From the NCBI GenBank assembly GCA_965221955.1, contig CBDCTA010000003.1, forward strand, positions 1 to 64,000: a stretch of DNA of 64,000 nucleotides. The letters are read 5' to 3'. Positions within the stretch are counted from its first letter, which is position 1. Every line of letters begins with the position of its first letter. The position numbers were made by a program, and so were the translations under genes. Shown here one piece after another: positions 16,584 through 41,582 of this stretch. The DNA comes from Gammaproteobacteria bacterium. Lineage in GTDB: Bacteria > Pseudomonadota > Gammaproteobacteria > UBA4575. The notes beneath the pieces were generated by a model. That model had not been told where the DNA came from. It was given only the letters and a program-made list of their open reading frames with translations, and did not search any database.

Positions 16584-17882
16584 ATGTATCTGTTAAAAAA
16601 TAAGTTATGGCCGCTTAGCTTATTAATTTTTATTCTACCGAATATAGTTTTAGCAGAAGGAATAGTTGACAGTGGTGACACCTCATGGCTATTAACGTCT
16701 ACTGCACTAGTGCTTTTTATGACTATTCCTGGATTGTCGCTTTTTTATGCGGGTTTGGTACGCAGTAAGAATGTTCTTTCTGTACTGATGCAGTGTTTTG
16801 CGATTACCTGTATGGCTTCATTAGTATGGTTAGTGTTTGGTTATAGCTTAGCGTTTGGGAATGGTGGAGGATTAAACGATTGGATTGGGGGTTTATCTAA
16901 TATCTTTTTATCCGAAGTGATGCGTGAGTCTTTAAATGGAACCATACCTGAAACCGTTTTTGTTATGTTTCAAATGACCTTTGCAATTATTACACCTGCA
17001 TTAGTTGTGGGTGGTTTTGCAGAGCGTATGAAATTTTCATCTATGATGTGGTTTTCATTGTTATGGCTAGTAGTTGTTTATCTTCCAGTTTGCCATTGGG
17101 TCTGGGGCGGTGGCTGGTTAGGTGAAAAAGGTGTACTGGATTTTGCAGGTGGCTTAGTGGTTCACATTACTGCGGGTGTGGGTGCTATTGTTGCGGCCAT
17201 GGTTTTAGGCAATCGAAAAGGTTTTCCACGTACTGCAATGCCACCTCATAATTTAACTATGTCTGTTACAGGTGCAGGAATGTTGTGGGTAGGTTGGTTT
17301 GGATTTAATGCGGGTAGTGCGGTTGCTGCAAATGGCGATGCCGGAATGGCAATGCTCGTTACACATATTAGTGCTGCAACAGGATCGTTAGTTTGGATGT
17401 TTGCGGAATGGGTGAAATACGGTAAACCCAGTGTGCTAGGTATAGTTACAGGTATGGTTGCAGGTCTTGGAACCATCACGCCTGCATCAGGTTATGTCGG
17501 TCCTATGGGCGCATTAATCATAGGCGCTTCTGCAGGTCTTGTTTGTTTTATTGCAACCAACTTTATTAAGCGTGCATTGAAAATTGATGACTCATTAGAT
17601 GTTTTTCCTGTTCATGGTGTAGGTGGTATTTTAGGCACCATCTTGGCCGGTATATTTGTTGCAGAACAATTTGGCGGAGCGGGATTTGCCGAAGGGATGA
17701 CTATGGGCTCTCAAGTAGGTGTACAGGTTGTAGGTGTTGTTTCTGTTTTAGTTTGGACAGCCGTTGCGACTTTTGTCATTTTACAGATTGTTAAATTAGT
17801 TGTTGGTCTGCGTGTAGATGACCAACAAGAAACACAAGGTTTAGACATCACCCAGCATGAAGAGACGGGTTATAACATGTAA
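16584..17882 (+). CDS. amtB: Ammonium transporter
   Basis: FQMTFAIIT, DFAGGLVVH, GWFGFNAGS, DDSLDVFPVHG. Confidence 0.97.
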   Translation: MYLLKNKLWPLSLLIFILPNIVLAEGIVDSGDTSWLLTSTALVLFMTIPGLSLFYAGLVRSKNVLSVLMQCFAITCMASLVWLVFGYSLAFGNGGGLNDWIGGLSNIFLSEVMRESLNGTIPETVFVMFQMTFAIITPALVVGGFAERMKFSSMMWFSLLWLVVVYLPVCHWVWGGGWLGEKGVLDFAGGLVVHITAGVGAIVAAMVLGNRKGFPRTAMPPHNLTMSVTGAGMLWVGWFGFNAGSAVAANGDAGMAMLVTHISAATGSLVWMFAEWVKYGKPSVLGIVTGMVAGLGTITPASGYVGPMGALIIGASAGLVCFIATNFIKRALKIDDSLDVFPVHGVGGILGTILAGIFVAEQFGGAGFAEGMTMGSQVGVQVVGVVSVLVWTAVATFVILQIVKLVVGLRVDDQQETQGLDITQHEETGYNM

Positions 17883-17894
17883 GCTAATGGACGA

Positions 17895-18118
17895 TGTGCA
17901 GGGATGCACAAGTGTCGTGTGAGACAGGATGTCGGGAGCGACCGCGCGAATAAGAGTAACAACAGGGATGTTGTTATAGTATAAAGTCAGATTGACATAA
18001 ATGTATCGCAGGTTGGAAATTTCAAATCATATATTTAAAATGTCCGCTACGACCGCCATGGATGGTGGAAGTTCAGAATATGCAGGAGCAATTTTCTGTC
18101 GACCCAAAGCGGAAATTT
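17895..18118 (+). repeat. Cluster of A(N)GGA-loop hairpin elements plus an interrupted ~32-bp palindrome (CsrA-site-like composite repeat or possible sRNA)
   Basis: Hairpins TGTGCA-GGGA-TGCACA (17895), GACA-GGA-TGTC (17923), TAACAACA-GGGA-TGTTGTTA (17957), CCGCCA-TGGA-TGGTGG (18053), TGC-AGGA-GCA (18081); collinear with 28463-28659. Confidence 0.75.
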
Positions 18119-18806
18119 ATCTCGCTAAGTTAAAAACATGTTTTATGATTGGTGAATTATTTTTTAAGGCTTCATCTTTAGATGCTATAAAAATAGGCTC
18201 ATTCACTAAGCTTTCTAAGTCCTCTTTATTATTCATTGCCTCATCATGACTTAGATTTTTTCCGTTTAACACAATGGCAGTCAGTTTTAATTTACGGTTT
18301 TGTATGGCTTCTACGGTCAATAAAATATGATTTATACAGCCAAGTTGATCATTTGCGACAAGTAATACTGGAAGCTCTAGTGATTCCGCGAGATCGGCAT
18401 TGAGTCCGCCTTCACATAATGGAGAGTAAAAACCTCCAGCACCTTCCGCAATTAAAAAGTTATTTTCATTTATTTTGTTTAAACATGCTTGTTTGGTTTG
18501 TTGCACACTGATGGGTTGGTTAACTAAACGTGCTGCGCGTTGTGGTGATATAGGAGGCTCAAAACGATACGGACATATTTCTGATAAGGGATGTTTGTTT
18601 TTTATCGCTTCATAATATTGTGTTGCATCACTGGGGTGTAATATTCCATCTATAAGCTCGCAGCCAGATTCGATTGGCTTACGTGGCACTACATCAACAC
18701 CTCTTTTATATAGTTGAGCAACAATTTGAGCACCTATGTAGGTTTTACCGACATCTGTATCGGTGCCGGTTATGAACAAGCCTTTATATGTTGATTGAGA
18801 ATTCAT
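18117..18806 (-). CDS. bioD: Dethiobiotin synthase
   Basis: FITGTDTDVGKT, KPIESG, EGAGG, LGCINH. Confidence 0.96.
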   Translation of the reverse strand: MNSQSTYKGLFITGTDTDVGKTYIGAQIVAQLYKRGVDVVPRKPIESGCELIDGILHPSDATQYYEAIKNKHPLSEICPYRFEPPISPQRAARLVNQPISVQQTKQACLNKINENNFLIAEGAGGFYSPLCEGGLNADLAESLELPVLLVANDQLGCINHILLTVEAIQNRKLKLTAIVLNGKNLSHDEAMNNKEDLESLVNEPIFIASKDEALKNNSPIIKHVFNLAR

Positions 18807-18833
18807 CTATTAAAACAGTTAGTTATAAATTAG

Positions 18834-18878
18834 TTGACAAACATACCGTCTGGTATGTATAACATACCGATCGGTATG
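18834..18878 (+). promoter_or_regulatory. Sigma70 promoter overlapped by two TetR-type operators
   Basis: TTGACA (18834) -18 bp- TATAAC (18858); palindromes ACATACC-gtct-GGTATGT (18841-18858) and perfect CATACCGATCGGTATG (18863-18878) directly upstream of the TetR gene. Confidence 0.85.
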
Positions 18879-18898
18879 GTATAAGTGATAAAAAAGCC

Positions 18899-19513
18899 AT
18901 GTCTTCTACAGCTAAGAATACAGAACAAGAACTCGCTACACGACAAGTAATTTTAGAAGCGGCCTATGAAGAGATTCATGCGCGTGGTTTTCAAGGTGCA
19001 AGTTTGTCTAAAATTTTATCTTCTACCAGTGTGACGAAAGGCGCTTTGTATCATTACTTTCCAACAAAGCTCGCTTTGGGTTATGCCGTTGTTGATGAAA
19101 TACTAGCGGATCATATTCAACAGCAATGGGTACAGCCTTTGTTGCAAGCAGATGATCCAATTACTGCTTTTGAAAATATCATCATGCAAACGGGTGGGGA
19201 AATTACAGAAGAAGATATTCAATGTGGTTGCCCGTTAAATAATCTAGCACAAGAAATGGCGCCAATAGATGAAGGTTTTCGATCTCGTGTTGAAGCGGTA
19301 TATCGATCATGGCGAAAAGGAATTGAAAAAGCATTTTTGAATGGTCAAGAAAACGGATTCGTTAGAAAAGATCTTAATGTTGTAAGTGTTGCAACGATGA
19401 TTGTTGCAAGTTTAGAAGGGTGTATGGGGTTAGCAAAGAATGCGCAAAGTAAAAAGATGCTTTATCAGTGTGGGCAAAGCATTATCGACTATTTAGAAAG
19501 TTTGCGAGCATAA
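18899..19513 (+). CDS. TetR/AcrR family transcriptional regulator
   Basis: N-terminal HTH (ILEAA..RGFQGASL..VTKGALYHYFPTK), GCPLNNLAQE C-terminal motif. Confidence 0.93.
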   Translation: MSSTAKNTEQELATRQVILEAAYEEIHARGFQGASLSKILSSTSVTKGALYHYFPTKLALGYAVVDEILADHIQQQWVQPLLQADDPITAFENIIMQTGGEITEEDIQCGCPLNNLAQEMAPIDEGFRSRVEAVYRSWRKGIEKAFLNGQENGFVRKDLNVVSVATMIVASLEGCMGLAKNAQSKKMLYQCGQSIIDYLESLRA

Positions 19514-19522
19514 GGGACAGAC

Positions 19523-21862
19523 ATGTTAAGTAAGTATTCAGAATTTATTCTACGCTGGCGATTTTTGGTTGTCATTGTAAGTTTGATTGGCGCATTTATT
19601 CTTGCATCCGGTGGAAAGAATTTAGTATTCACCAACGATTATCGTTATTTCTTTAGTGAAGATAACCCGCAATTACTTGAGTTTGAAGCTTTACAAGATA
19701 CCTATACTAAAAATGATAATGTCTTCATCATGTTGGAGCCAAAACAAGGTGATGTATTTAATCAAGAATTTTTACGTGCATTAAAGGAGCTCACTGAGCA
19801 ATCGTGGCAAGTTCCTCATTCTATACGCGTTGACTCAATTACTAATTTCCAACATACCTACGCTGAAGGGGATGATTTAATTGTTATCGACTTGGTTGAT
19901 GACACAGAGAGCCTTGATCTAGAGAGTTTAACTTATATTCGTGAAGTTGCATTAAACGAGCCATTGTTAGTGCGCCGCTTAGTGTCACCTTCTGCTGCAG
20001 CTGCAGCGGTAAACATCACCATTGAGCTACCAGGTAAGAACGAAATTACGGAAGGGCCTGAGGTGGTTAATTTCACTCGAGATATGGTGAAAGACTTTGA
20101 ACAAGCTCATCCGGAGATTGATGTGTACACCACTGGAATTGTAATTATGAACAATGCATTTCCAGAGGCCAGTATTAACGACATGAAAAATCTCATTCCG
20201 TTTGCGTTTGTAGCAATCATCATTGGCTTGTTTTTGTTTTTACGCAGTGTGACGGGGACTGTTTCAACACTCATAGTGATAATTCTTTCCATAATGATGG
20301 GTATGGGTACAGCTGGTTGGTTAGGGTTTAAATTAACACCACCTTCTGCTTCCGCGCCAACGATGATTTTGACATTAGCGGTTGCAGACTGTGTCCACTT
20401 CTTGACGACATTTTTAAATTCTATGCGTAGTGGGTTAGATAAATCTTCAGCAATTAAAGAATCATTGCGAGTCAATTTTTATCCAATCTTTTTAACTTCT
20501 TTAACCACTGTAATCGGTTTTCTAAGTTTAAATTTTAGTGATGTTCCGCCTTTTAGAGACTTAGGCAATATTACTGCGATGGGTGTGACATTTGCGTTTT
20601 TCCTATCCGTGTTCTTTCTGCCTGCACTCGTCTCTATCTTGCCAGTTAAAGTTAAACTAGGGACAGATAGAAAAACAAAACTTATGCAATATATTGCAAA
20701 TTTTGTAATTGTAAAACGCAAAACATTATTGTGGAGTATGGGTTTAATAATCATTGCATTTATCGCAGTCATACCACGTAATGAGATTAATGATCGGTTT
20801 GTTGAATACTTTGATGAGACGATTGAATTTCGTCGTCACACTGATTATGTAACTGAAAAAATTTCTGGCTTATATAGTATTCAGTTTTCTTTAGAGGCAA
20901 AAACCTCAGGTGGGATTAGCGAACCTGTTTTTTTGCAAAAAATGAACCGTTTTACGGAATGGTTGCGTGAACAACCTGAGGTAATGCATGTAAACACGAT
21001 TTCAGATACTTTTAAACGTTTGAATAAAAATATGCATAGTGATGATTTATCACAATATAAATTACCTAATAATCGCGAGTTAGCTGCACAGTATTTGCTC
21101 CTATATGAGTTGTCACTGCCTTATGGCTTAGATCTGAATGATCAAATTAATATCGATAAATCATCTACACGTATTTCTACAACTCTGGAAACACTTAGTA
21201 CAGAGCAAATGCTTGACTTTGAAAAAAGATCAAGAGAGTGGGTAGAAAAAAATGCACAAGAACTTACTATGATTGCTTCTAGTCCAGCAGTTATTTTTTC
21301 ACATCTTGCCGTGCGAAATATCGATAGCATGATCATTGGCACGTTAGTAGCATTAGCGATTATATCGATCATTTTAATTTTCGCATTGCGATCACTAAAA
21401 CTAGGGCTAGTTAGTTTGATCCCTAATCTAACACCTGTGGGAGTCGCTTTTGGGTTATGGGCAATTTTTGATAGTGAAGTTGGTTTGGCCTTGTCTATTG
21501 TTGCCGGTATGACGCTCGGCATTGTTGTCGATGATACCGTGCACTTTATGAGCAAGTACTTACGCGCCAAACGAGAGAAAAATAGCTCGGCAACTGAGGC
21601 TGTACGATATGCATTTGAAAATGTTGGCACAGCATTACTCGTTACTACTATTGTATTAGCAGCCGGATTCTTAGTTTTATCTATGTCTGCTTTCGAACTG
21701 AACTCAGCAATGGGTTTGTTAACTGCAATTACCATAATAATTGCACTAATCATTGATTTCTTATTTTTAGCACCATTGTTGATTGCATTAGAAGGTGGCG
21801 GTAATGAACAGGAGAACCGAGATGAACAAGAGTTGGAATCTGATTTGGCAACTGCTAGTTAG
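19523..21862 (+). CDS. MMPL/RND-superfamily transporter
   Basis: Two repeats of TM bundle plus periplasmic loop; LAVADCVH, LTSLTTVIGF, GIVVDDTVHF. Confidence 0.92.
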   Translation: MLSKYSEFILRWRFLVVIVSLIGAFILASGGKNLVFTNDYRYFFSEDNPQLLEFEALQDTYTKNDNVFIMLEPKQGDVFNQEFLRALKELTEQSWQVPHSIRVDSITNFQHTYAEGDDLIVIDLVDDTESLDLESLTYIREVALNEPLLVRRLVSPSAAAAAVNITIELPGKNEITEGPEVVNFTRDMVKDFEQAHPEIDVYTTGIVIMNNAFPEASINDMKNLIPFAFVAIIIGLFLFLRSVTGTVSTLIVIILSIMMGMGTAGWLGFKLTPPSASAPTMILTLAVADCVHFLTTFLNSMRSGLDKSSAIKESLRVNFYPIFLTSLTTVIGFLSLNFSDVPPFRDLGNITAMGVTFAFFLSVFFLPALVSILPVKVKLGTDRKTKLMQYIANFVIVKRKTLLWSMGLIIIAFIAVIPRNEINDRFVEYFDETIEFRRHTDYVTEKISGLYSIQFSLEAKTSGGISEPVFLQKMNRFTEWLREQPEVMHVNTISDTFKRLNKNMHSDDLSQYKLPNNRELAAQYLLLYELSLPYGLDLNDQINIDKSSTRISTTLETLSTEQMLDFEKRSREWVEKNAQELTMIASSPAVIFSHLAVRNIDSMIIGTLVALAIISIILIFALRSLKLGLVSLIPNLTPVGVAFGLWAIFDSEVGLALSIVAGMTLGIVVDDTVHFMSKYLRAKREKNSSATEAVRYAFENVGTALLVTTIVLAAGFLVLSMSAFELNSAMGLLTAITIIIALIIDFLFLAPLLIALEGGGNEQENRDEQELESDLATAS

Positions 21863-22622
21863 CATTGTAGTAGTCAGTGCAAGCCCACTTGTCTGGGCGG
21901 AAACACCTGAGGAGAAAGGGTTGGCAATTGCCATTGCAGCGGATGAGCGTGACACAGGCTTTGAAACCATTACTGCCGATATGATTATGACTTTACGAAA
22001 TCGTCAAGGGCAAGAAAGTACGCGTTATATACGCACACGCACTTTAGAAGTAGAAGGCGATGGTGATAAAACATTATCGATTTTTGATCGACCTGCAGAT
22101 GTTAAACACACAGCTGTGTTGACTTATAGCCATGGACTAGAACCAGATGATCAATGGCTTTATCTTCCTGCATTGAAACGTGTAAAACGCATTAACTCGA
22201 GAAACAAATCGGGCCCATTTGTGGGTAGCGAATTTGCGTTTGAAGATTTAGGCTCACAAGAAGTAGAAAAATATTCTTATAAATACCTTCGTGATGAGTC
22301 TTGTGGAGAATGGGAATGCTATGTAATCGAGCGTTATCCTGAATACGAATATTCTGGTTATACACGTCAAGTGGGATGGATCGATAAAGCTGAATATCGG
22401 CCAGTTAAAATTGAATTCTATGACCGTAAAAATACATTGTTAAAAACATTAACCTATAGTGGTTACCAAGAATATATTGATTACTATTGGCGTCCAGATG
22501 AAATGTTTATGGAGAATCATCAAACTGGTAAAACAACTACGTTAAAATGGTCAGACTATAAATTCAAAACCGAAGTGGCCGAGCGTGATTTCAATCCTAA
22601 TGCATTACCAAGGTTGCGATAA
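21822..22622 (+). CDS. Outer-membrane lipoprotein-sorting (LolA-like) periplasmic protein
   Basis: DDQWLYLPALKRVKRI, FVGSEFAFEDL; start moved to ATG 21822 (RBS AGGAG at 21810, signal peptide ending VWA). Confidence 0.88.
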   Translation: MNKSWNLIWQLLVSIVVVSASPLVWAETPEEKGLAIAIAADERDTGFETITADMIMTLRNRQGQESTRYIRTRTLEVEGDGDKTLSIFDRPADVKHTAVLTYSHGLEPDDQWLYLPALKRVKRINSRNKSGPFVGSEFAFEDLGSQEVEKYSYKYLRDESCGEWECYVIERYPEYEYSGYTRQVGWIDKAEYRPVKIEFYDRKNTLLKTLTYSGYQEYIDYYWRPDEMFMENHQTGKTTTLKWSDYKFKTEVAERDFNPNALPRLR

Positions 22623-22635
22623 ATAAAAAACAAGA

Positions 22636-23862
22636 ATGAATGCTACCTTTAAACTAGCCCTGCATGTTTTTATGCGGGGCTTGCTTTTGCTGATGATCAT
22701 TTCTCAAACTATTTATGCTCAAGATGGTTCACCTGGATATTGGTCAGGCTATGTTTCAGGACAAGCACGTGGATTTTGGCAAAGTCCTCAGTTTTCGGAC
22801 CAACGTGATGGTGATATTTCGATCGCTGCAGAGCCAGAATATTATAAAGATTGGGATAATGGTTTGCGTGCGATCACGTTCAAACCTTTTGTGCGGCTTG
22901 ATTCGACAGATCCAGAACGTACACATGTTGATATACGTGAAGCTCATTACTTACATGTAGTGGGGGATTGGGAATGGCGTGTGGGTGTTGCAAAAGTATT
23001 TTGGGGGGTAACGGAGTCACAGCATTTAGTCGACATTATTAATCAAACCGATTTAGTAGAAAACGTAGATACCGAAGACAAGCTTGGGCAACCGATGATT
23101 GAAACGACCTGGTTGCAAGATTGGGGAGCGTTACAGTTTTATATTTTGCCCGGCTTTAGAGAGCGCACATTTCCCGGGCGCCATGGGCGTTTACGCACCG
23201 GCTTGGTTGTCGATACTGATAAAGAAGAATATGAATCTGGTGCAGAAGAATATCATGTTGATTGGGCAGTACGATTAAAAACGCAATTTGGTCCTGTAGA
23301 TTTAGGGTTGTCACATTTCAACGGTACCTCACGTAATCCTGAATTGCGGCCCACACTCAACTTCAACGGTGGAATCGAGCTCATTCCTTTTTATGGATTA
23401 ATCGATCAGACCGGTTTGGATTTGCAAGCCATCATTGGTAATTGGACCTGGAAATTAGAATCTATCTTGCAAACCAAGAAAGGTCGTGACTTCACTGCAG
23501 CAGTGGGTGGGTTTGAATATACGTTTTATGGCGTTTCTGAAAGTGGTGCAGATTTAGGGATCTTATCTGAATATCATTTTGATGATCGCAAACAGGATGC
23601 GCCCACAGGATTTCAAGATGATATATTTTTAGGTGCGCGTTATGTGTTTAATGATGCACAAGATACGGAAATTTTAGCGGGTGGTTTGTATGACTTTGAC
23701 TTTAGCAGTAAAAGTTTTCGTGTGGAGCTGCGACGTAGATTTAGCGATAGCTGGAAACTTGAAAGTGAATTACAAATGTTTGGTAATGTAGATAGCCAAG
23801 ATCCGTTACATAATTTCCATCGTGACGACTATCTTCAAATAGATTTCGCCTATTATTTTTAG
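22636..23862 (+). CDS. Putative outer-membrane beta-barrel protein
   Basis: Signal peptide, VFWGVTES..LVDIINQ motif, alternating beta strands, terminal YYF. Confidence 0.75.
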   Translation: MNATFKLALHVFMRGLLLLMIISQTIYAQDGSPGYWSGYVSGQARGFWQSPQFSDQRDGDISIAAEPEYYKDWDNGLRAITFKPFVRLDSTDPERTHVDIREAHYLHVVGDWEWRVGVAKVFWGVTESQHLVDIINQTDLVENVDTEDKLGQPMIETTWLQDWGALQFYILPGFRERTFPGRHGRLRTGLVVDTDKEEYESGAEEYHVDWAVRLKTQFGPVDLGLSHFNGTSRNPELRPTLNFNGGIELIPFYGLIDQTGLDLQAIIGNWTWKLESILQTKKGRDFTAAVGGFEYTFYGVSESGADLGILSEYHFDDRKQDAPTGFQDDIFLGARYVFNDAQDTEILAGGLYDFDFSSKSFRVELRRRFSDSWKLESELQMFGNVDSQDPLHNFHRDDYLQIDFAYYF

Positions 23863-23871
23863 AGTAAAACC

Positions 23872-24276
23872 ATGATGAGTAAAGAAATAGAAATTGTAGA
23901 AAAGTATTTCTCTGCTTGGAACGCGCATGATACGGATGCAATTCTTGCCACATTCACAATAGACGGTACTTATAGCGACCCAGTAGGCGGCAAAAATTTA
24001 TCCGGGCAAAACTATGCAGATTATGCAAGTAGTTTATTTATAACTTTTCCTGATTTAAAGCTGGAGCTCATTGAAAATTCCGTTGCAAGTACGGGAGTTA
24101 TTGCAGCTCCTTGGTTATTGTTTGGAACTCATCAAGGACCAGTTGGCGAATTGCAAGCAACAGGAAAATCGATTGTATTGCCAGGTTGTGATTTTATAAC
24201 TGTTGAAAATGAAAAAATAAAACAAGTGATTGGTTATTTCGATCCGGAATATTTATTTGAGCAATTAAGCCCATAA
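23872..24276 (+). CDS. SnoaL-like / NTF2-fold ester cyclase family protein
   Basis: YFSAWNAHD, FPDL, GTHQG..ATGK..GCDF. Confidence 0.85.
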   Translation: MMSKEIEIVEKYFSAWNAHDTDAILATFTIDGTYSDPVGGKNLSGQNYADYASSLFITFPDLKLELIENSVASTGVIAAPWLLFGTHQGPVGELQATGKSIVLPGCDFITVENEKIKQVIGYFDPEYLFEQLSP

Positions 24277-24288
24277 TTAAGCTAGCAA

Positions 24289-25173
24289 TTATAATTTTAC
24301 TCCAGTTAACTTCTCGCATGCCTCCAAGTATTTGGCACTCGTGTTATCGATAATTTCTTGTGGTAGTTTGGGCCCCGGTGCTTGTTTATTCCAATCTAAG
24401 GTTTCTAAATAATCGCGCACATATTGTTTATCAAAACTTTTTGGACTTTCGCCTACTTTGTAGGTATCTTTTGGCCAAAAGCGTGATGAATCTGGCGTGA
24501 GGGCTTCGTCAATTAAAACAATTTCTTCGTTTTCATCTAAACCAAATTCAAATTTGGTATCGGCAATAATAATGCCACGCTCTAAAGCATATTCAGCTGC
24601 TTGGGTGTAAATTTCTATGCTTAAGTCGCGCACTTTCTCAGCGGTATCTTTGCCAACTAAATTTATAATTTCAGTAAAACTAACATTGATATCGTGATCA
24701 CCCACTGCGGCTTTAGTTGAAGGAGTAAAAATAGCTTGTTCTAATTGCTGTGCTTGTTGTAAATCTGCAGGCAGTAATTCACCACAGATAGCACCGGTGT
24801 TTTGATATTCTTTCCAACCTGAACCAATGATATAGCCACGCACGATGGCTTCGAAAGGTAATGCTTGTAACTTACGTGCAATCACAGATCTACCTTGTAG
24901 GATGGATAATTCTTGTTTATCTCGAATTACATCTTCGAGTTGAATATCACTTAGATGGTTTTTAACTTTGCTTGAGAATCGATCAAACCAAAAATTTGAA
25001 ACGGTGGTAAGTACAATGCCTTTTTTTGGAATTGGGTCAGGCAATACCACATCAAATGCAGATAGGCGATCACTGGTGACAATCAGCCAATGCTGGCTGT
25101 CGACCTGATAAATGTCCCGCACTTTGCCTTGATAGACCTTTTTTAGGCTTTTTAGGTTAGATTCAAATAACAT
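24289..25173 (-). CDS. purC: SAICAR synthase
   Basis: GKVRDIY, SDRLSAFD, ADTKFEFG, DEALTPDSSRFW. Confidence 0.97.
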   Translation of the reverse strand: MLFESNLKSLKKVYQGKVRDIYQVDSQHWLIVTSDRLSAFDVVLPDPIPKKGIVLTTVSNFWFDRFSSKVKNHLSDIQLEDVIRDKQELSILQGRSVIARKLQALPFEAIVRGYIIGSGWKEYQNTGAICGELLPADLQQAQQLEQAIFTPSTKAAVGDHDINVSFTEIINLVGKDTAEKVRDLSIEIYTQAAEYALERGIIIADTKFEFGLDENEEIVLIDEALTPDSSRFWPKDTYKVGESPKSFDKQYVRDYLETLDWNKQAPGPKLPQEIIDNTSAKYLEACEKLTGVKL

Positions 25174-25268
25174 TTCGGTATATTTGCTTGTTTTCAGCTG
25201 GTTTTATTGGGCCGTGTCAGCGAAAATGCCCGATTAATTTTTTGTCTACAAATAACTGAGGAATCACA

Positions 25269-25757
25269 ATGGCCAATCCACAAGTAAGTCTCATCATGGG
25301 TAGTGATAGTGACTGGCCTGTAATGCGTGCCGCTGCAGAGGTGCTTACTCAATTTAATGTATTGTACGAAAAGCGCGTTGTCTCTGCTCATCGAACACCT
25401 AATTTAATGGCAGAATTTTCTCAAGACGCAGCTTCTCGAGGTATTCAATGTATTATTGCAGGTGCAGGTGGTGCAGCGCATCTACCCGGTATGGTAGCAG
25501 CGAACACAACGGTGCCTGTGTTAGGTGTGCCGGTTCCAAGTAAACATTTATCAGGGCAAGACTCTTTATATTCTATTGTTCAGATGCCAAAAGGCGTGCC
25601 GGTCGCTACGTTTGCAATTGGTGAGGCGGGTGCGGCGAACGCTGGACTGTTTGCCGTCGCGCTGTTAGCGAATAACGATTCGACATTAAAAGCTAAGTTG
25701 GATGATTTTCGAGCAAAACAATCGGAAAAAGTTCTAAACGCCACACTTCCTGATTAA
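25269..25757 (+). CDS. purE: N5-CAIR mutase
   Basis: [25 protein letters not shown]. Confidence 0.98.
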
Positions 25758-25768
25758 TATTTGATTCT

Positions 25769-26905
25769 ATGATTTTACCGGGTGCTACGCTTGGCATGTT
25801 AGGTGGCGGCCAATTGGGCCGTATGTTTGTGCATGCCGCTACTGCAATGGGTTATCGCGTGATCGTGCTCGACCCAAACTCATCAAGTCCCGCAGGTGAG
25901 ATTGCCCACTTACATTTACAAGCAAATTACGATGATGCTCATTCCCTAAAAGCACTTGCACAAGAATGCGCAGTAATTACTACTGAATTTGAAAATGTCC
26001 CCGCAGAAGTATTTGAGCATTTAGAAAAAACTTGTCTCGTATCCCCTAGCGCACGTGCATTAGAGCTCGCACAAGACCGAATCAAAGAAAAACAATTTGC
26101 GCAGTCATTAGGTATTTCGCCGACGCCTTTTCACGAAGTAAATAGTGAGGATGATATTGAGCAAGCGTTTAATACATTAAGCGCACCTTTGATTTTAAAA
26201 ACTACTCGCTTAGGCTATGACGGGAAAGGTCAGGCAGTTGTAAATTCAAAGCAAGAATGTATTGAACAATGGAATGCACTTGAAAATGTGAGCTGTGTAT
26301 TAGAGAAAAAAATCAATTTAGCTTGTGAAGTCTCAGTAGTACTAGCGCGTTCATTAAGTAATGAACTCAGTATTTTCCCGATAGCAGAAAACGTTCACAA
26401 AGATGGTATTTTATTTACCAGTACAGTACCAGCAAAAGCAAGTGAAGAAATTCAAGATTTAGCTAAATCGTGCGCACAAAAAATTACAGAAGAGCTAAAT
26501 TATTGTGGCGTGTTGTCAGTAGAATTTTTTATTGATAGTGATGGTGGTTTGTTTTTTAATGAGATGGCCCCACGTACCCATAATAGTGGCCACTATTCTA
26601 TGGACGCATGTTATACCTCGCAATTTGAGCAACAAGTTAGAGCAATTTGTGATCTCCCCTTGGGTAATACCGATGCACATAGTGCGGTGACGATGGTGAA
26701 TGTATTGGGCGATCTTTGGCAAAAAAATAATAACGAACAACCCAACTGGGCCAGTATTTTATCTGAAAATGTTAAATTACATTTATATGGTAAGCATCAA
26801 GCAAGACCGGGTAGAAAAATGGGGCATTTTAATGTCCTTGCCAATCATGGTGAGGATACGTTGGCTGTTGGTAAAAAATGTTTTCTAAAACTCATATCAC
26901 AATAA
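25769..26905 (+). CDS. purK: N5-CAIR synthase
   Basis: GGGQLGRM, GYDGKGQ, NEMAPRTHNSGH, RKMGH. Confidence 0.97.
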   Translation: MILPGATLGMLGGGQLGRMFVHAATAMGYRVIVLDPNSSSPAGEIAHLHLQANYDDAHSLKALAQECAVITTEFENVPAEVFEHLEKTCLVSPSARALELAQDRIKEKQFAQSLGISPTPFHEVNSEDDIEQAFNTLSAPLILKTTRLGYDGKGQAVVNSKQECIEQWNALENVSCVLEKKINLACEVSVVLARSLSNELSIFPIAENVHKDGILFTSTVPAKASEEIQDLAKSCAQKITEELNYCGVLSVEFFIDSDGGLFFNEMAPRTHNSGHYSMDACYTSQFEQQVRAICDLPLGNTDAHSAVTMVNVLGDLWQKNNNEQPNWASILSENVKLHLYGKHQARPGRKMGHFNVLANHGEDTLAVGKKCFLKLISQ

Positions 26906-26917
26906 CATCCTAAAAAG

Positions 26918-27913
26918 ATGAAAAACTTTCCTGCATTTCGTATTCATTCTGATAAAGAAGGTACGCGCGCAGGAATCGAGCAACTCAGCATTAATGATTT
27001 ATGCGAAGGCGATGTAGTTATTAAGGTTAAGTATTCAAGCATTAACTATAAAGATGCGCTCGCAGGTACGGGAAAAGCTCAAATTCTTCGACGTTCACCC
27101 TTGGTGGGCGGAATTGATCTTGCAGGCGAAGTAGTTGAATCAAAGAGTAGAAATTTCTCTCAAGGCGACAAAGTTTTAGTAAATGGCAGTGGCTTAAGTG
27201 AAACGCATGATGGAGGTTATGCGGAATTTGCTCGTGTACCTGTCGATTGGATAGTACCTTTGCCATCAGGCCTAAGCTTAAGTCAATCGATGATTATTGG
27301 CACTGCCGGTTTTACGGCCGCACTATGTGTTCATCTGTTAGAGCAAAATAATCAACAGATAGAAGACGGTCCGATTGTTGTAACCGGAGCAAGTGGTGGA
27401 GTTGGGAGTTTTGCCGTTAATATTTTGCATAAATTAGGTTATGAAACGGTTGCTGTCACGGGTAAGAATACTTCGCATGAGTATTTATATGAGCTCGGTG
27501 CTACAAAAGTGGTTGGGCGAGGGAAAATTGAAGTTGGGGATGGTGTATTAGAAAAAACCCGCTGGGCTGGTGCGATTGATAATGTGGGTGGCAAAACGTT
27601 AAGCGCATTGGTAAGAGCAACCAAACCTTGGGGAAATGTGGTAAGTGTAGGTATTGCAGGTGGAGTGAAATTCGAGTTATCAACGATGCCTTTCATTATA
27701 CGCGGGGTGAACTTATTGGGTGTGAGTTCCTCTAATTGTCCACAACCACTTCGAAAAGAAATTTGGCGTCGTCTGGGTGAAGATTTACATCCTGATCAAA
27801 TTGCAAAAATACATTCTAAAACGATCAAGCTAGAAAATCTGACGAATACATTTGAAGAATTACTTAATAATGAAATTCAAGGAAGAGTATTAGTGAAGGT
27901 AAGCAATGAGTAG
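26918..27913 (+). CDS. acuI: YhdH/AcuI-family NADPH oxidoreductase (acryloyl-CoA reductase-like)
   Basis: YSSINYKDALA, GTAGFTAAL, VTGASGGVGS, PFIIRGVNLLG. Confidence 0.85.
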   Translation: MKNFPAFRIHSDKEGTRAGIEQLSINDLCEGDVVIKVKYSSINYKDALAGTGKAQILRRSPLVGGIDLAGEVVESKSRNFSQGDKVLVNGSGLSETHDGGYAEFARVPVDWIVPLPSGLSLSQSMIIGTAGFTAALCVHLLEQNNQQIEDGPIVVTGASGGVGSFAVNILHKLGYETVAVTGKNTSHEYLYELGATKVVGRGKIEVGDGVLEKTRWAGAIDNVGGKTLSALVRATKPWGNVVSVGIAGGVKFELSTMPFIIRGVNLLGVSSSNCPQPLRKEIWRRLGEDLHPDQIAKIHSKTIKLENLTNTFEELLNNEIQGRVLVKVSNE

Positions 27914-28460
27914 AAAAGTTTTAATCAAACGTACTTATACGATTTTGTTTTTTGTTTTTGCAGTGCTCACAAGCGCAGTCGTTTATGCAGAAAAAGTAAA
28001 TCCTCCCGCACAAATGCCTGAATTTACACAAGTGGATGAAGCTGCATGGATTAATTCTAAACCATTATTAAAAAATGATTTGCGTGGCAAAGTAGTATTA
28101 ATCGATGTTTGGACCTACGGATGCTGGAATTGCTATAACTCATTTCCATGGTTACGCAGTGTTGAAGAAAAATTTGCAGATCAAGACTTCACAGTAATCG
28201 GTATTCATACTCCTGAATTCGATCGAGAAAAAGTGCGTGAAAATGTAGTAAAAAAAGTTGAAGAATTTGAATTACACCATCCAGTGATGATGGATAATGA
28301 TTTCGCCTATTGGCGTACACTGCGCAATAAATACTGGCCAGCTTATTATATTGTTGATAAGCAAGGCAATATACGTAAAGGCTTCATCGGTGAAACGCAT
28401 GAGGGCGACCGGCGCGCTAAGAAAATTGAAAAGCTAATCGCTAAATTACTTAAGGAATGA
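27906..28460 (+). CDS. Exported redoxin/thioredoxin-like protein (DipZ C-terminal-like)
   Basis: Signal peptide, GKVVLIDVWTYGCWNC, IGIHTPEF, NKYWPAYY. Confidence 0.88.
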   Translation: MSRKVLIKRTYTILFFVFAVLTSAVVYAEKVNPPAQMPEFTQVDEAAWINSKPLLKNDLRGKVVLIDVWTYGCWNCYNSFPWLRSVEEKFADQDFTVIGIHTPEFDREKVRENVVKKVEEFELHHPVMMDNDFAYWRTLRNKYWPAYYIVDKQGNIRKGFIGETHEGDRRAKKIEKLIAKLLKE

Positions 28461-28462
28461 GT

Positions 28463-28659
28463 GCGCGCAAGAATGCACGAATATGTTTAACAATAAGAAT
28501 GTTGTTTCAAGTTAAAGTCAGGAGATTTTAAAATGACTGCTTCGAATGCCATGTATAGTGAAAGAGGAGAAATTACAAGACTGCAAGGATGCAGGAGGTA
28601 GAGCAAAGCAGGAGCAGTTGCCGAGGAGAAAATTTCTGTCTGTCAATAGCGTATATTTT
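28463..28659 (+). repeat. Degenerate copy of the 17.9-18.1 kb composite repeat with a nested 47-bp GGA twin-hairpin insert (28578-28624)
   Basis: 28548-28577 and 28625-28640 align to 18055-18100; insert contains CTGCA-AGGA-TGCAG and GC-AGGA-GC hairpins. Confidence 0.75.
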
Positions 28660-28669
28660 CTAATTGTAC

Positions 28670-29080
28670 TTATTGCGATGATACATATAACTTGCCCAAA
28701 TTATTTTTGATCAACAAAGAACAATCACTAGTAATTTTCCCGAATTGAAATTTCTTACCATCAGCTTTGAAAGTTGCGCTAAATAAATTATTTTTATCTA
28801 TCTCAAATATTTTTACCTCATCAATATTTGCAGCCCACTTTAAGTCCTCAAGAGTTGTACCCTTAAATGTCATTGTATTTTGACTAGGATTTAGACTCAC
28901 TGTCCTTTTTGCTATTTTATTTGAAAATTGGATAACTAATATTTCATTGTTCTTGTCATTAAATCTGCATTGAATTTGTTCAAATCGAGCATCCTTAGAG
29001 CAACTTACTAAGATAATTGATAATACAATTGCAAATAAACTCTTATCAACATTGAGATTAATTTGTTTGAATATATTCAT
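28670..29080 (-). CDS. Hypothetical lipoprotein (AT-rich orphan)
   Basis: Hydrophobic stretch plus lipobox (IILVS-C); 136-aa ORF. Confidence 0.65.
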   Translation of the reverse strand: MNIFKQINLNVDKSLFAIVLSIILVSCSKDARFEQIQCRFNDKNNEILVIQFSNKIAKRTVSLNPSQNTMTFKGTTLEDLKWAANIDEVKIFEIDKNNLFSATFKADGKKFQFGKITSDCSLLIKNNLGKLYVSSQ

Positions 29081-29095
29081 ATCAACGCGTTATAA

Positions 29096-29127
29096 AAATG
29101 TCCGATTTGGGTCGTAAGCAGTCATTT
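29096..29127. repeat. Uninterrupted ~32-bp imperfect palindrome (empty-site version of 18037-18118)
   Basis: AAATGTCCGATTTGGGTCGTAAGCAGTCATTT; its reverse complement matches AAATGTCCGCTACGACC/CAAAGCGGAAATTT at 18038/18105. Confidence 0.7.
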
Positions 29128-29208
29128 GTTCTTTTTAAATAAGAAAATTGTGATTACCACAATAAATACTAACATCAAGACGAGTGTTCCTATTTCACCA
29201 ATACTCAT
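29122..29208 (-). CDS. Putative 28-aa single-pass membrane microprotein (MSIGEIGTLVLMLVFIVVITIFLFKKNK)
   Basis: GGAG RBS upstream, one TM helix with basic C-tail; stop codon lies inside the palindrome. Confidence 0.5.
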   Translation of the reverse strand: MSIGEIGTLVLMLVFIVVITIFLFKKNK

Positions 29209-29268
29209 CTTTTAATTTCTCCAATCATGTCAGCAGTGAATTTCCCAACTCGTTCATTACTTTAGGCT

Positions 29269-29362
29269 ACCTAACTCTAATCAATTGCATCGTCCTTGAT
29301 GGGCATCATATTCGCGCATCTTTGTGCTTACTTCCATATGCTCACACTTTGAGTCGTTAGGC
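29269..29362 (-). repeat. attC-like site containing a degenerate GGA twin-hairpin
   Basis: Minus strand GCCTAAC...GTTAGGT (RYYTAAC/GTTRRRY), 94 bp, 9 bp after the methyltransferase stop; inner pairing is poor. Confidence 0.4.
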
Positions 29363-29371
29363 TCATCTTAT

Positions 29372-30310
29372 TTAAAGACACGCTTTACAAATTGCCTCAA
29401 TATGGCGGTGGTCTGTACCACAACAGCCACCCAATACATTTAAATTAGGCAAATATTTTCTCAATTGACGATATTGGCTGCCGAGTTCATCAGGATTGCC
29501 TTCATCTAACTCTTCGGCTTCATCGAGTTCTGCATGACTGCACTTAGATGCGTTTGCGCGAAGACTCCTTATTTTTTCTAACCAAGGCTCGCCTGTTGAA
29601 ACGATATTTTCAAAATGAGTGGGATGAGCGCAATTTATTTTATAGTAAATTGGAGAATGGTCAGTCTCTGTTTCTACTTGCAAGATGGCATCTTTCAATG
29701 TTTGACCGGTTGGAAGTTTTCCATCTGTTTCAACTGTAAATGAAATGACTGCTGGCATATTATAGTTACGTGCAGCATTTGCAATTCCTATAGCTTCTTC
29801 TACATAGTTTAAGGTTAGCGCTGTGACCATGTCTGTATCGGTTTTGCTTAACGTTTCAATTTGGTGTGAATGATAATCTTCGGCTTCATTCGTTGACATT
29901 AACTCACCTGGAACATAGCCATCACCACGCGGGCCAATGCATCCGCTAATCACCATTTTGGAGTTATCATTTTCATATTCATTTCTAAATGGCATGAGAA
30001 ATTCGATGGATTTTTGCAACATTTCTTCTAGACCTGTTTTTGAGTAACCTAATTTTTTGGCCCAGTCTAAGCTGGCCCGCCACGTGACCGCTTCCAAAAT
30101 AAATCCAACCTTATACTTTTCAGCAATAGAACAATGAGTATGGAAATATTTTTTAAAAGCTTCTTGTCCTTTGGGGTCATTGAGTAGATGAAATGCAGCA
30201 AAATAGGGTAGTTCTAAACCTTCATGAAATAACATGGTCGTTTCGATACCGCCATCCGTAAGAAATAAATCTCCAGATAGTTGAGGTAAATTATTCCTAT
30301 ATTTAGCCAT
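29372..30310 (-). CDS. Homocysteine S-methyltransferase family protein (stand-alone)
   Basis: LTDGGIET, GCIGPRGDGY, INCAHP, GGCCGTDHRHI Zn ligands. Confidence 0.93.
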   Translation of the reverse strand: MAKYRNNLPQLSGDLFLTDGGIETTMLFHEGLELPYFAAFHLLNDPKGQEAFKKYFHTHCSIAEKYKVGFILEAVTWRASLDWAKKLGYSKTGLEEMLQKSIEFLMPFRNEYENDNSKMVISGCIGPRGDGYVPGELMSTNEAEDYHSHQIETLSKTDTDMVTALTLNYVEEAIGIANAARNYNMPAVISFTVETDGKLPTGQTLKDAILQVETETDHSPIYYKINCAHPTHFENIVSTGEPWLEKIRSLRANASKCSHAELDEAEELDEGNPDELGSQYRQLRKYLPNLNVLGGCCGTDHRHIEAICKACL

Positions 30311-40895: not shown

Positions 40896-41582
40896 TTGAA
40901 TAGTTCTTTAGCGCGAACGCGTTGTGTGATGTTTGATTTAGATGGCACCCTAGTCGATAGTGCACCAGATATAGCAATCAGCATGAACAAAATGTTGCAG
41001 CAATTAAATTATCCCACACATGATCTTGCACAGGTGCGTGACTGGATGGGAAATGGAGCAACGAAGCTTATTAAGCGCGCGCTTACTGCGCAGGTGGATG
41101 GCGAGCCACCAGAAGCATTATTTAAAAAAGCCCAACAGACGTTTTTTGATCTTTATGACCAACACATTAATGTTGAAAGTGCCATGTATGCAGGAGCATT
41201 AGAGGGTTTAACGATTTTGCGAGAGCAATCCTATATTATGGCTTGTGTTACCAATAAACCCAGAAGGTTTACCCCTGCTTTATTAGAGGCTTTTGGTTTA
41301 GAGCATTATTTTGATTATCTAATCTGCGGTGATGACCTTGCAGTGAAAAAGCCTGATCCTCAAGTATTGCAAAATGTGTTGCGAGAAGCCGATTTAACCC
41401 CCATGCAAGCAGTGATGGTTGGGGACTCCGCCAGTGATATAAAAGCGGCCCGCGCAGCGAATATGAAGTCATTTTGTGTCCGATATGGATATCATCAGGG
41501 CACAGGAGTTGATGCTTTGGGCGCAGACTATATAATCGACTCCATTGAGGAAGTGCCTCAATATCTACTAAATACAGATTAA
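40896..41582 (+). CDS. gph: Phosphoglycolate phosphatase
   Basis: HAD motifs FDLDGTLVDS, TNKP, KKPDP, VGDSASD; rpe-gph-trpE synteny. Confidence 0.93.
   Translation: MNSSLARTRCVMFDLDGTLVDSAPDIAISMNKMLQQLNYPTHDLAQVRDWMGNGATKLIKRALTAQVDGEPPEALFKKAQQTFFDLYDQHINVESAMYAGALEGLTILREQSYIMACVTNKPRRFTPALLEAFGLEHYFDYLICGDDLAVKKPDPQVLQNVLREADLTPMQAVMVGDSASDIKAARAANMKSFCVRYGYHQGTGVDALGADYIIDSIEEVPQYLLNTD

Follow-up and report, generated by a model that had tools for sequence, protein, structure and literature searches.

GGA-loop hairpins in a gammaproteobacterial genome belong to a lineage-restricted family of mosaic intergenic repeats placed at the 3′ ends of genes

What are the short twin hairpins with GGA loops that recur in the intergenic spacers of one stretch of gammaproteobacterial DNA, and to what end are they there? 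The stretch, hereafter the window, is a segment of 64,000 nucleotides (C3:1-64000) of assembly G000 (2.69 Mb in 29 contigs, ~38% G+C, 96.6% complete). An earlier note had described these hairpins as free-standing elements of 45-50 nt, dispersed, apparently mobile and conserved in structure rather than sequence, that add binding sites for the post-transcriptional regulator CsrA to 3′ regions. We find that the elements form a family of mosaic intergenic repeats that is restricted to one lineage and has short nGGA(U)-loop hairpins as its building block. The stems of these hairpins covary while the GGA loops remain fixed; the placement of GGA sites at 3′ regions is supported by the position and orientation of the repeats relative to genes. 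That the family consists of transcribed, CsrA-binding 3′ modules spreading at the DNA level is a reading to which we assign, from sequence, a probability of roughly 45%.

The hairpins of the window lie in three spacers, at 17883-18116 (+, 3′ of an amtB-like open reading frame [ORF]), 28461-28669 (+) and 29097-29371 (-). Alignment of these spacers revealed common sequence far exceeding the short hairpins, and BLAST of the three against the whole assembly returned ~90 segments spread over many contigs; ten longer seeds yielded 139 merged loci, 10.8 kb in total. Modules were defined from printed copies, and copies were counted by iterated nhmmer. The main module, Y (62 copies), is 58 nt long; it opens with GT(G/A)AGC, comprises two nGGA-loop hairpins joined by a GAATA(T/A)GAG linker and closes with a tail that ends in AGATTAAAGT. 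Three further modules, X (7 copies), Z (10 copies, or 20 when merged with its variant Z2) and W (12 copies), are twin-hairpin units and share with Z2 a common plan in which ACGAC comes first, then a TGGA-loop hairpin with 5-6 bp in its stem, next a linker (AAGT or GAGGT) and finally a longer stem with a GCAGGAGCA-type loop. Module d is a REP (repetitive extragenic palindromic)-like palindrome (AATGTCCGCT, a centre of 8-10 nt, AGCGGACATT) found at 172 unique loci (295 nhmmer matches on both strands), and module c, of which a hidden Markov model finds 9 copies, is promoter-like. The GGA modules jointly make up 79 composite loci in G000, in agreement with the dispersal reported before. Conservation of structure rather than sequence, as previously claimed, holds between Z, Z2, W and X, the stem sequences of which differ, and within Y; each module taken singly is nonetheless strongly conserved in sequence between genomes (Z alignment A3, covering G000 and 8 relatives, 9 genomes in all).

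Nor are the units free-standing. The loops of Y hairpins 1 and 2 house X and Z2, respectively, the centre of d houses Z, and Z hairpin 2 in turn holds W in its loop; one and the same unit also occurs within several different host loops. All of the hairpins named by the earlier note are present. In the first spacer, Y opens with GTAAGC at 17879-17884 (+), whose TAA (17880-17882) terminates the amtB-like ORF 16584-17882. Nested in the loop of its first hairpin is X at 17891-17945 (+; nhmmer E 5e-17, alifold structure), previously delimited as 17895-17943, where TGTGCA-GGGA-TGCACA and an AAGT linker precede a longer hairpin with GGA in its internal and terminal loops. The remainder of Y occupies 17944-17987 (+; nhmmer Y positions 15-58, fold) and comprises the 3′ arm of hairpin 1, a GAATAAGAG linker, hairpin 2 (CAACA-GGGA-TGTTG) and a tail ending AAAGT. 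Module c (18013-18041, +) reads into palindrome d (18040-18116, +; arms ATGTCCGCT and AGCGGAAAT, the 3′ arm decayed), the loop of which holds Z at 18049-18099 (+; nhmmer, alignment A3; previously 18053-18100), made of CCGCCA-TGGA-TGGTGG, an AAGT linker and a hairpin with the loop GCAGGAGCA. The second spacer starts with a decayed Y at 28461-28518 (+; nhmmer E 4e-8), directly after the TGA (28458-28460) of ORF 27906-28460, in which GGA has become GAA in both loops; it continues with a decayed d (28532-28656, +) containing a decayed Z and an intact W at 28579-28638 (+; nhmmer E 1e-16; previously 28581-28625), the latter showing CTGCA-AGGA-TGCAG, a GAGGT linker, a hairpin with the loop GCAGGAGCA and an extra GAGGAG. 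On the minus strand, the third spacer carries an intact Y at 29274-29331 (-; nhmmer E 2e-12; covariance model R1, 65.7 bits) 41 nt downstream of the co-oriented ORF 29372-30310 (-), a d-loop remnant (CTAACGACTCAAAG) followed by the partial first hairpin of a second Y at 29332-29360 (-; by inspection), a junction that recurs in other copies, and a palindrome d (29097-29126, -; nhmmer d) that closes the composite. Three segments formerly read as partial or decayed copies of the twin-hairpin element (17944-17976, 28463-28506 and 29287-29327 on the minus strand) are parts of a different module, Y; decay was correctly recognized at 28461-28518, whereas the Y copies at 17944-17987 and 29274-29331 (-) are intact. 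By inspection, X is flanked by sequences closed by the Y hairpin 1 stem (GCGC/GCGC, GCAC/GTGC, CTAC/GTAG) in 3/6 copies; an automated flank-stem (basal-stem) test performed no better than its control. Likewise by inspection, unit junctions display neither terminal inverted repeats nor target-site duplication, and CGAC bounds X and Z on either side, which is not the case for W or Z2. The third spacer also contains a 28-codon ORF for a hydrophobic peptide, MSIGEIGTLVLMLVFIVVITIFLFKKNK (29122-29208, -), with GGAG 9 nt upstream; it is placed between a c remnant and the d palindrome, and its TGA lies within the d 5′ arm.

Structural conservation was assessed on 37 aligned copies of Y (A2), taken from G000, from three numbered relatives and from named metagenome-assembled genome (MAG) records. 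Stem positions were paired in 91.9% of cells compared to 79.3±1.0% after shuffling, a value that 0/500 shuffles reached, and sliding the stems as a control gave 10-45% pairing. The covariation check that had been proposed likewise came out in favor of the stems, with 56 double-change cells against 18.5 shuffled (0/500) and a covariation score of 0.400 against 0.168 (0/500). A separate count on all 61 distinct rows gave 80.2% pairing versus 71.7±1.0%, and the 13 full-length rows of the 20 in the Z/Z2 alignment gave 79.2% versus 68.5±1.8% (maximum 73.8%) with 22 double-change cells versus 8.2. Since Y stem variants fall into discrete subfamilies (GCGCA, GCCCA, GCATA, GTACA), much of this covariation may stem from source copies rather than from change in place. 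GGA, meanwhile, is present in ~88-95% of Y loops. The base before it varies: the second loop position is U in 20, G in 19 and A in 13 copies of hairpin 1, and G in 25, U in 20 and A in 15 copies of hairpin 2, making it a pyrimidine in only about one third of copies. The first loop of Z is AUGGAU, and the second loop of both Z and W is GCAGGAGCA. The prominence of GGA loops was also apparent when no family model was used: among the 937 perfect tetraloop hairpins located outside ORFs (stem ≥5 bp), TGGA (35), GGGA (34) and AGGA (31) ranked second, third and fifth, and CGGA occurred 3 times. A looser GGA-hairpin scan was too permissive, its sole usable figure being a fivefold density.

The repeats are not scattered evenly among spacers. 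Y copies occupy 33 co-directional, 26 convergent and 1 divergent spacers, where spacer lengths predict 36.6, 9.6 and 13.9, respectively (p 1.5e-9), and those in co-directional spacers are sense in 24 cases and antisense in 9 (p 0.014). Positions 2-4 of Y read TGA or TAA in 46/48 copies with a complete 5′ end and, in 10 of these 46, end an ORF of at least 60 codons. A co-oriented ORF of at least 100 codons stops between -5 and +25 nt of the Y start in 17/48 copies, as against 1.2% in a null of 5000 random intergenic positions and 0/48 in the antisense-side control; widening the range to -60..+25 gives 29/48, with a null of 13.5% and an antisense-side control of 7/48. The test replicated in part in three other genomes (5/16, 3/9 and 0/10). 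The earlier proposal that the elements add sites to 3′ regions thus finds support in the position and orientation of Y relative to genes. No replication-strand bias of Y of the kind expected as an IS200/RAYT-like signature was seen beyond that of the genes themselves (33 leading and 24 lagging, with 62% of genes leading), nor, by eye, was there a clean switch in the strand-by-position pattern of Y along the complete genome G001.

The 3′ end of amtB offers orthologous filled and empty sites. In 6 genomes (G000 and 5 relatives) the element is present, with Y starting in the stop codon, and no GC-hairpin/T-run terminator occurs in the 330 nt examined; in 8 relatives, the stop codon is followed after ~25 nt by a conserved GC hairpin and T-run. 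A search of 17700-18300 in the window found no terminator-like site either. The filled composites differ from one another: that of G011 is Y-c-d(Z) without X, that of G000 adds X, and that of G007 carries Z2 in Y hairpin 2. G000 and G011 have both kept the composite, at 76% identity across a matching stretch that takes in coding sequence as well. The sense position of the composites right after stop codons, together with the replacement of the ordinary amtB terminator, suggests that they are transcribed with the upstream gene.

If so, what would the GGA loops do in RNA? The genome encodes one csrA (92 bits; 63-aa protein), and the high-affinity CsrA consensus is RUACARGGAUGU with GGA in a hairpin loop, as given in passages of an account of the Csr system (PMC4347634). 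Loops of the family fit this consensus, GGA in hairpin loop included. The 10-mer core ACARGGAUGU obtained by systematic evolution of ligands by exponential enrichment (SELEX) occurs 24 times in the genome, 13 times in the family (sense), 8 times in other intergenic DNA and 3 times in ORFs. The sequence CANGGANG, which we take to be the CsrA motif consensus, occurs in the family 101 times in sense and once in antisense, 112 times in other intergenic DNA and 522 times in ORFs, the family accounting for 47% of the occurrences outside ORFs. The GGAs of the Y model begin at positions 11 and 37, and their spacing of 26 nt is within the range that one CsrA dimer bridges. Two further RNA candidates in the genome, a sub-threshold TwoAYGGAY-like RNA with these same loops and a multi-GGA sRNA with a terminator (both described below), also count in favor. 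Multiple GGA motifs are thus displayed in hairpin loops on what gene orientation indicates to be the transcribed strand, making CsrA binding by the family hairpins plausible. A literature search for CsrA linked with REP or miniature inverted-repeat transposable elements found nothing relevant.

These observations lead us to the reading introduced at the outset. Transcription would include the composites at the 3′ end of the upstream mRNA or, inside operons, as spacer, and their hairpins would offer the CsrA dimer numerous high-affinity sites. Taken together, the elements may form a distributed, mRNA-borne CsrA-binding or titrating load, and locally they may act as 3′ stem-loops setting transcript ends and stability. 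The family would spread and reshuffle at the DNA level, with twin-hairpin units entering hairpin loops and d palindromes serving as recombination junctions.

Several results weigh against this reading. Mismatches in Y stems are balanced, with 30 G·T and 38 A·C over 13 pairs, which is expected from neutral decay or DNA-level selection and provides no RNA-specific wobble signal. Folding of whole spacers gave z scores of -1.64 and -0.03 in sense as opposed to -4.50 and -1.96 on the other strand and, showing no sense preference, was not counted as support. Among the 62 Y copies, 15 retain one GGA and 9 (28461-28518 included) retain none, and 9/33 copies in co-directional spacers are antisense. csrA is found in 52/56 genomes of the family to which G000 belongs and in all 11 genera, and the repeat in 5 genera; CsrA therefore does not follow the repeat in its distribution, and as it is nearly universal there, its co-occurrence with the repeat is uninformative. 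At gathering threshold no Rfam model matched in the window, Csr/Rsm and TwoAYGGAY models included, and relaxed scans returned noise only (snoRNA models, InvR, ssnA and RsmY at 12.2 bits). Fixed orientation beside genes is not decisive, as a directional recombination system would also yield it, integron attC sites being a case in point. Finally, placement was scored against crude gene calls (simple ORFs of at least 90 aa), and the repeat copies are not independent, contigs C14 and C23 being duplicates.

Much of the same evidence bears on whether the family is purely selfish, a DNA-level repeat of the REP/BIME (bacterial interspersed mosaic element) or neisserial NIME (Neisseria intergenic mosaic element) kind in which GGA hairpins would be DNA recognition sites of a mobilising or recombining protein, the fit to CsrA incidental and transcription without regulatory meaning. 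The balanced mismatches speak for it, as do the 24/62 Y copies that have lost one or both GGAs and the discrete Y stem subfamilies, which source lineages would give. Location at gene 3′ ends and avoidance of divergent spacers are also typical of REP elements, public assembly contigs break at the repeats, and d palindromes are exact junctions of cassette gain and loss between allelic contigs. Distribution fits a spreading repeat as well. Covariance model R1, built on Y, found Y in 21/56 genomes of the order (represented in the collection by one single family) at 1-69 copies, so that the census proposed earlier yielded, beyond the 62 copies in G000, occurrences in 20 other genomes of the family. 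Within the genus of G000, each of the 14 other genomes has Y (5-69 copies over the 15), as do 2/2, 1/1 and 1/1 genomes of three further genera and 2/16 of another; none was found with this model in the 13, 3, 2, 1, 1 and 1 genomes of six other genera of the family, nor in any of 149 genomes from 149 other families of the class. In public records, nhmmer confirmed true Y copies at 15 loci or more; these come from nine MAG records of uncultured organisms, which carry the label Gammaproteobacteria, Thiotrichales or Pseudomonadota. A consensus-pattern scan of genome contigs gave at least 113 loci, mostly chance singles, two consensus patterns retrieved nothing from viral contigs, and plasmid and phage collections held no match to 17883-18116.

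The elements are probably mobile. Support for mobility is indirect and comes from the presence or absence of the amtB element, the range of 5-69 copies within one genus and the presence of one unit in several host loops. This is as far as the apparent mobility suggested before can be upheld, given that we found no insertion event, target duplication or mobilising enzyme. The Z unit is almost identical between species whose amtB is only 76-80% identical. Contigs from 4 runs contained joints that are cross-matches between repeat copies (e.g. 17944 to 28579), not excisions. Any Y1/RAYT (PF01797), IS110 or reverse transcriptase gene, for which the earlier note suggested looking, is missing from the 96.6% complete assembly, which counts against a purely selfish family, as does the lack of replication-strand bias beyond the genes' own. 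Neither would such a family explain readily why loop sequence is fixed and not just hairpin shape, why the CsrA consensus stands in sense at 101:1, why the Y 5′ end abuts stop codons in sense only (17/48 versus 0/48) and why the amtB composite has been retained between G000 and G011 at 76% identity. On balance, we consider a purely selfish origin rather unlikely. Two tandem Y arrays were observed in G001, at C1:1359861-1360107 and C1:2271040-2271278, each with three Y units at a period of 82-92 nt and each unit preceded by a d 5′ arm and loop. Y there seems to enter d just past the AG that opens the d 3′ arm, CAAAG or CAATAG being followed by TGAG, as is also the case in several G000 copies.

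A bolder variant of the CsrA reading would make the ~50-nt twin-hairpin unit itself a self-propagating CsrA-site cassette that inserts specifically into hairpin loops, builds nested multivalent CsrA-binding structures, lands with Y at stop codons and so wires into, or loads onto, the Csr network of one bacterial lineage the 3′ ends of dozens of unrelated genes. With RAYT, IS110 and reverse transcriptase absent, loop-targeted insertion would have no known enzyme, and we regard this variant as doubtful.

Modules c and d raise a different possibility. Outside the window, d bounds arrays of co-oriented, unrelated small ORFs that are separated by d′-c-d units, and the Y-c-d and d′-c-d composites might accordingly be recombination sites of an integron-like cassette system, the dispersed copies being stray sites. 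Contigs C14 and C23 are allelic contigs of two co-assembled strains, 99% identical and differing by cassettes of 1-11 kb, and all 4 cassette breakpoints between them fall within d palindromes, as [d-cassette-d] versus [d]. The arrays observed, at C14:4318-8379 compared with C23:10849-23271 (within the locus C23:7000-24500) and at C5:600-6300, encode globin, DUF2314, OsmC, Na/H exchanger, M48, HSP20, TPR and GNAT proteins, and many of their ORFs have no Pfam match. Strain-variable content, co-orientation and sites that begin at or near stop codons in fixed orientation are all features that an integron-like system would display. A search for an integron integrase found none, however, the best stretch matched by TIGR02249 scoring 83 bits against a cut-off of 265 and the matches resembling XerC/XerD; the recombinase beside one array adjoins dsbC, as housekeeping xerD does, and looks like housekeeping XerD. 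By inspection, d is a simple self-complementary palindrome and not the long imperfect R″-L″/L′-R′ hairpin of attC, most Y copies lie 3′ of core genes such as amtB rather than of cassettes, and the invariant GGA loops would be left unexplained. An integron-like system therefore appears improbable to us.

The remaining alternative takes c at face value. This module (TTGGAA-N17-TAAAAT) ends 2-3 nt before d; its strict pattern lies directly upstream of 34/172 d loci and of 0/172 in the opposite orientation, and, as the pattern occurs 137 times genome-wide, a quarter of all its instances precede d. We infer that c is a promoter. The downstream-ORF test (29/34 against a null of 72%) does not discriminate. 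The composites could then be independent sponge small RNA (sRNA) genes of the CsrB/RsmZ type, started at c and ended by the d stem, an idea in keeping with the good sigma-70-like pattern with its fixed 17-nt spacer directly upstream of d, with the location of Z and W just downstream of c in some copies and with the 6 GGA hairpins carried by the G001 tandem arrays. It is difficult to reconcile with the main module Y being upstream of c and with the finding, by eye, of c in only 3 of ~10 Z/W composites inspected. A start ~7 nt past the -10 would, moreover, omit most of the d 5′ arm, so that the closing stem could not form; no terminator-like site was found, and family covariance models detected no CsrB, no PrrB_RsmZ, and RsmY at only 12-25 bits against a gathering threshold of 57. 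Independent sponge genes thus seem very improbable. A candidate for a classical Csr/Rsm-type sponge sRNA was noticed elsewhere, in an intergenic region of ~250 nt at C22:244440-244690 (+). This region contains 7 GGA motifs, of which several lie in hairpins of the ACAAGGAU or GCAAGGAC type, has a GC hairpin and T-run at its end and shows no match to the Rfam CsrB, RsmY and RsmZ models. An isolated twin hairpin at C29:622150-622177 (-), composed of CTACA-GGGA-TGTAG and GCTGCA-TGGA-TGCGGC with a terminator later in the spacer, may be another small RNA.

Should the hairpins bind CsrA, ordinary mRNAs in this lineage would carry on the order of 200 extra CsrA sites, titration would be spread over the transcriptome instead of being concentrated in one or two sponge sRNAs, and a repeat family would be rewiring a global post-transcriptional regulator. 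The role of AYGGAY/GGA-loop twin hairpins such as TwoAYGGAY has been a question since 2010, which this family makes testable, since the amtB 3′ end occurs naturally with and without the element, both intact and decayed copies exist, and the CsrA is canonical. Independently of CsrA, loop nesting and the use of d palindromes as exact boundaries of strain-variable cassettes point to a recombination activity. Two other features of the window were recorded. A 125-nt direct repeat is present in four copies (614-738, 7088-7212, 7490-7614 and 7877-8001; 63-70% identity), three of them ~390-400 nt apart, and is probably a repeated domain within a large coding region. A match at 41165-41198 lies inside coding sequence and was dismissed as chance.

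How does the family compare to known systems? Like CsrB and CsrC as well as RsmX, RsmY and RsmZ, as portrayed in passages of PMC4347634, it places numerous GGA motifs that fit the CsrA consensus in the loops of hairpins, and its host encodes CsrA. Unlike them, it is no stand-alone sRNA gene and is dispersed over 79 composite loci behind protein genes.

By architecture, and by architecture only, its closest named relative is TwoAYGGAY (RF01731), in which a basal stem carries two hairpins in sequence, each with an A-Y-GGA-Y terminal loop. The earlier note knew of no named element with this design; one of similar layout thus exists, and the elements described here do not match its model. No copy reached the gathering score of 43 bits in the window, and none was found at E ≤10 in 17500-29700, in 17870-18130 or in a Z-W-Y composite. 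The sole match of a whole-genome scan was a single-copy, full-length TwoAYGGAY-like RNA at C5:52065-52230 (-), scoring 36.2 bits, which carries loops ACAAGGAUGU and GCAUGGAUGC on a basal stem and lies outside the mosaic repeats. In the portions of the literature that deal with it, TwoAYGGAY was listed as a probable RNA in 2010 (PMC2864571) and its AYGGAY loops were proposed as CsrA sites in 2015 (PMC4333381); main-text passages of a 2026 preprint report for Pseudomonadota that it is multicopy (up to 202 per genome, with a median of 11-23), that it is associated with REP arrays and that variants have extra AYGGAY hairpins, and suggest a 'mobile-element-like' expansion (bioRxiv 10.64898/2026.09.22.753630). 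By inspection, Z inside d and X inside Y hairpin 1 resemble it in their three-way layout, and most loops read A(U/G/A)GGAU. In contrast to TwoAYGGAY, Y has no basal stem, and the second loop of Z and W is GCAGGAGCA rather than AYGGAY; mutual nesting, sense abutment to stop codons and modules c and d further set the family apart from TwoAYGGAY as those main-text passages describe it, a comparison on which the variant figures of the preprint may bear.

At the DNA level, the family shares with the REP/BIME elements of enterobacteria and pseudomonads short palindromes, mosaic combinations and many copies at gene 3′ ends. REP elements number in the hundreds, lie 3′ of genes or in convergent spacers and are rare in promoter regions; Liang, Rudd and Deutscher reportedly noted in 2015 that they often lie within a few nucleotides of a stop codon. 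The present family differs in having no RAYT/Y1 transposase (PF01797) anywhere in the assembly, in conserving a GGA loop, in nesting hairpins within loops and in its sense-strand polarity. Outside the window, the arrays delimited by d resemble integron arrays in that their cassettes are co-oriented, flanked by structured sites and variable in content between strains. The neisserial NIMEs, finally, differ in sequence and host lineage, their RS units are not described as GGA-loop hairpins in the relevant passages of PMC1797815, and no dRS3-targeting phage or IS110-type enzyme was found in G000. As those passages relate, dRS3 inverted repeats flank many families of 50-150 nt RS units, and dRS3 is hypothesised to be a recombinase site (PMC1797815). 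Here too, a short inverted repeat with a variable centre, d, bounds both repeat units and gene cassettes in arrays that vary between strains. The family itself is well supported, and its DNA-level mosaic organisation resembles that of BIMEs and neisserial NIMEs.

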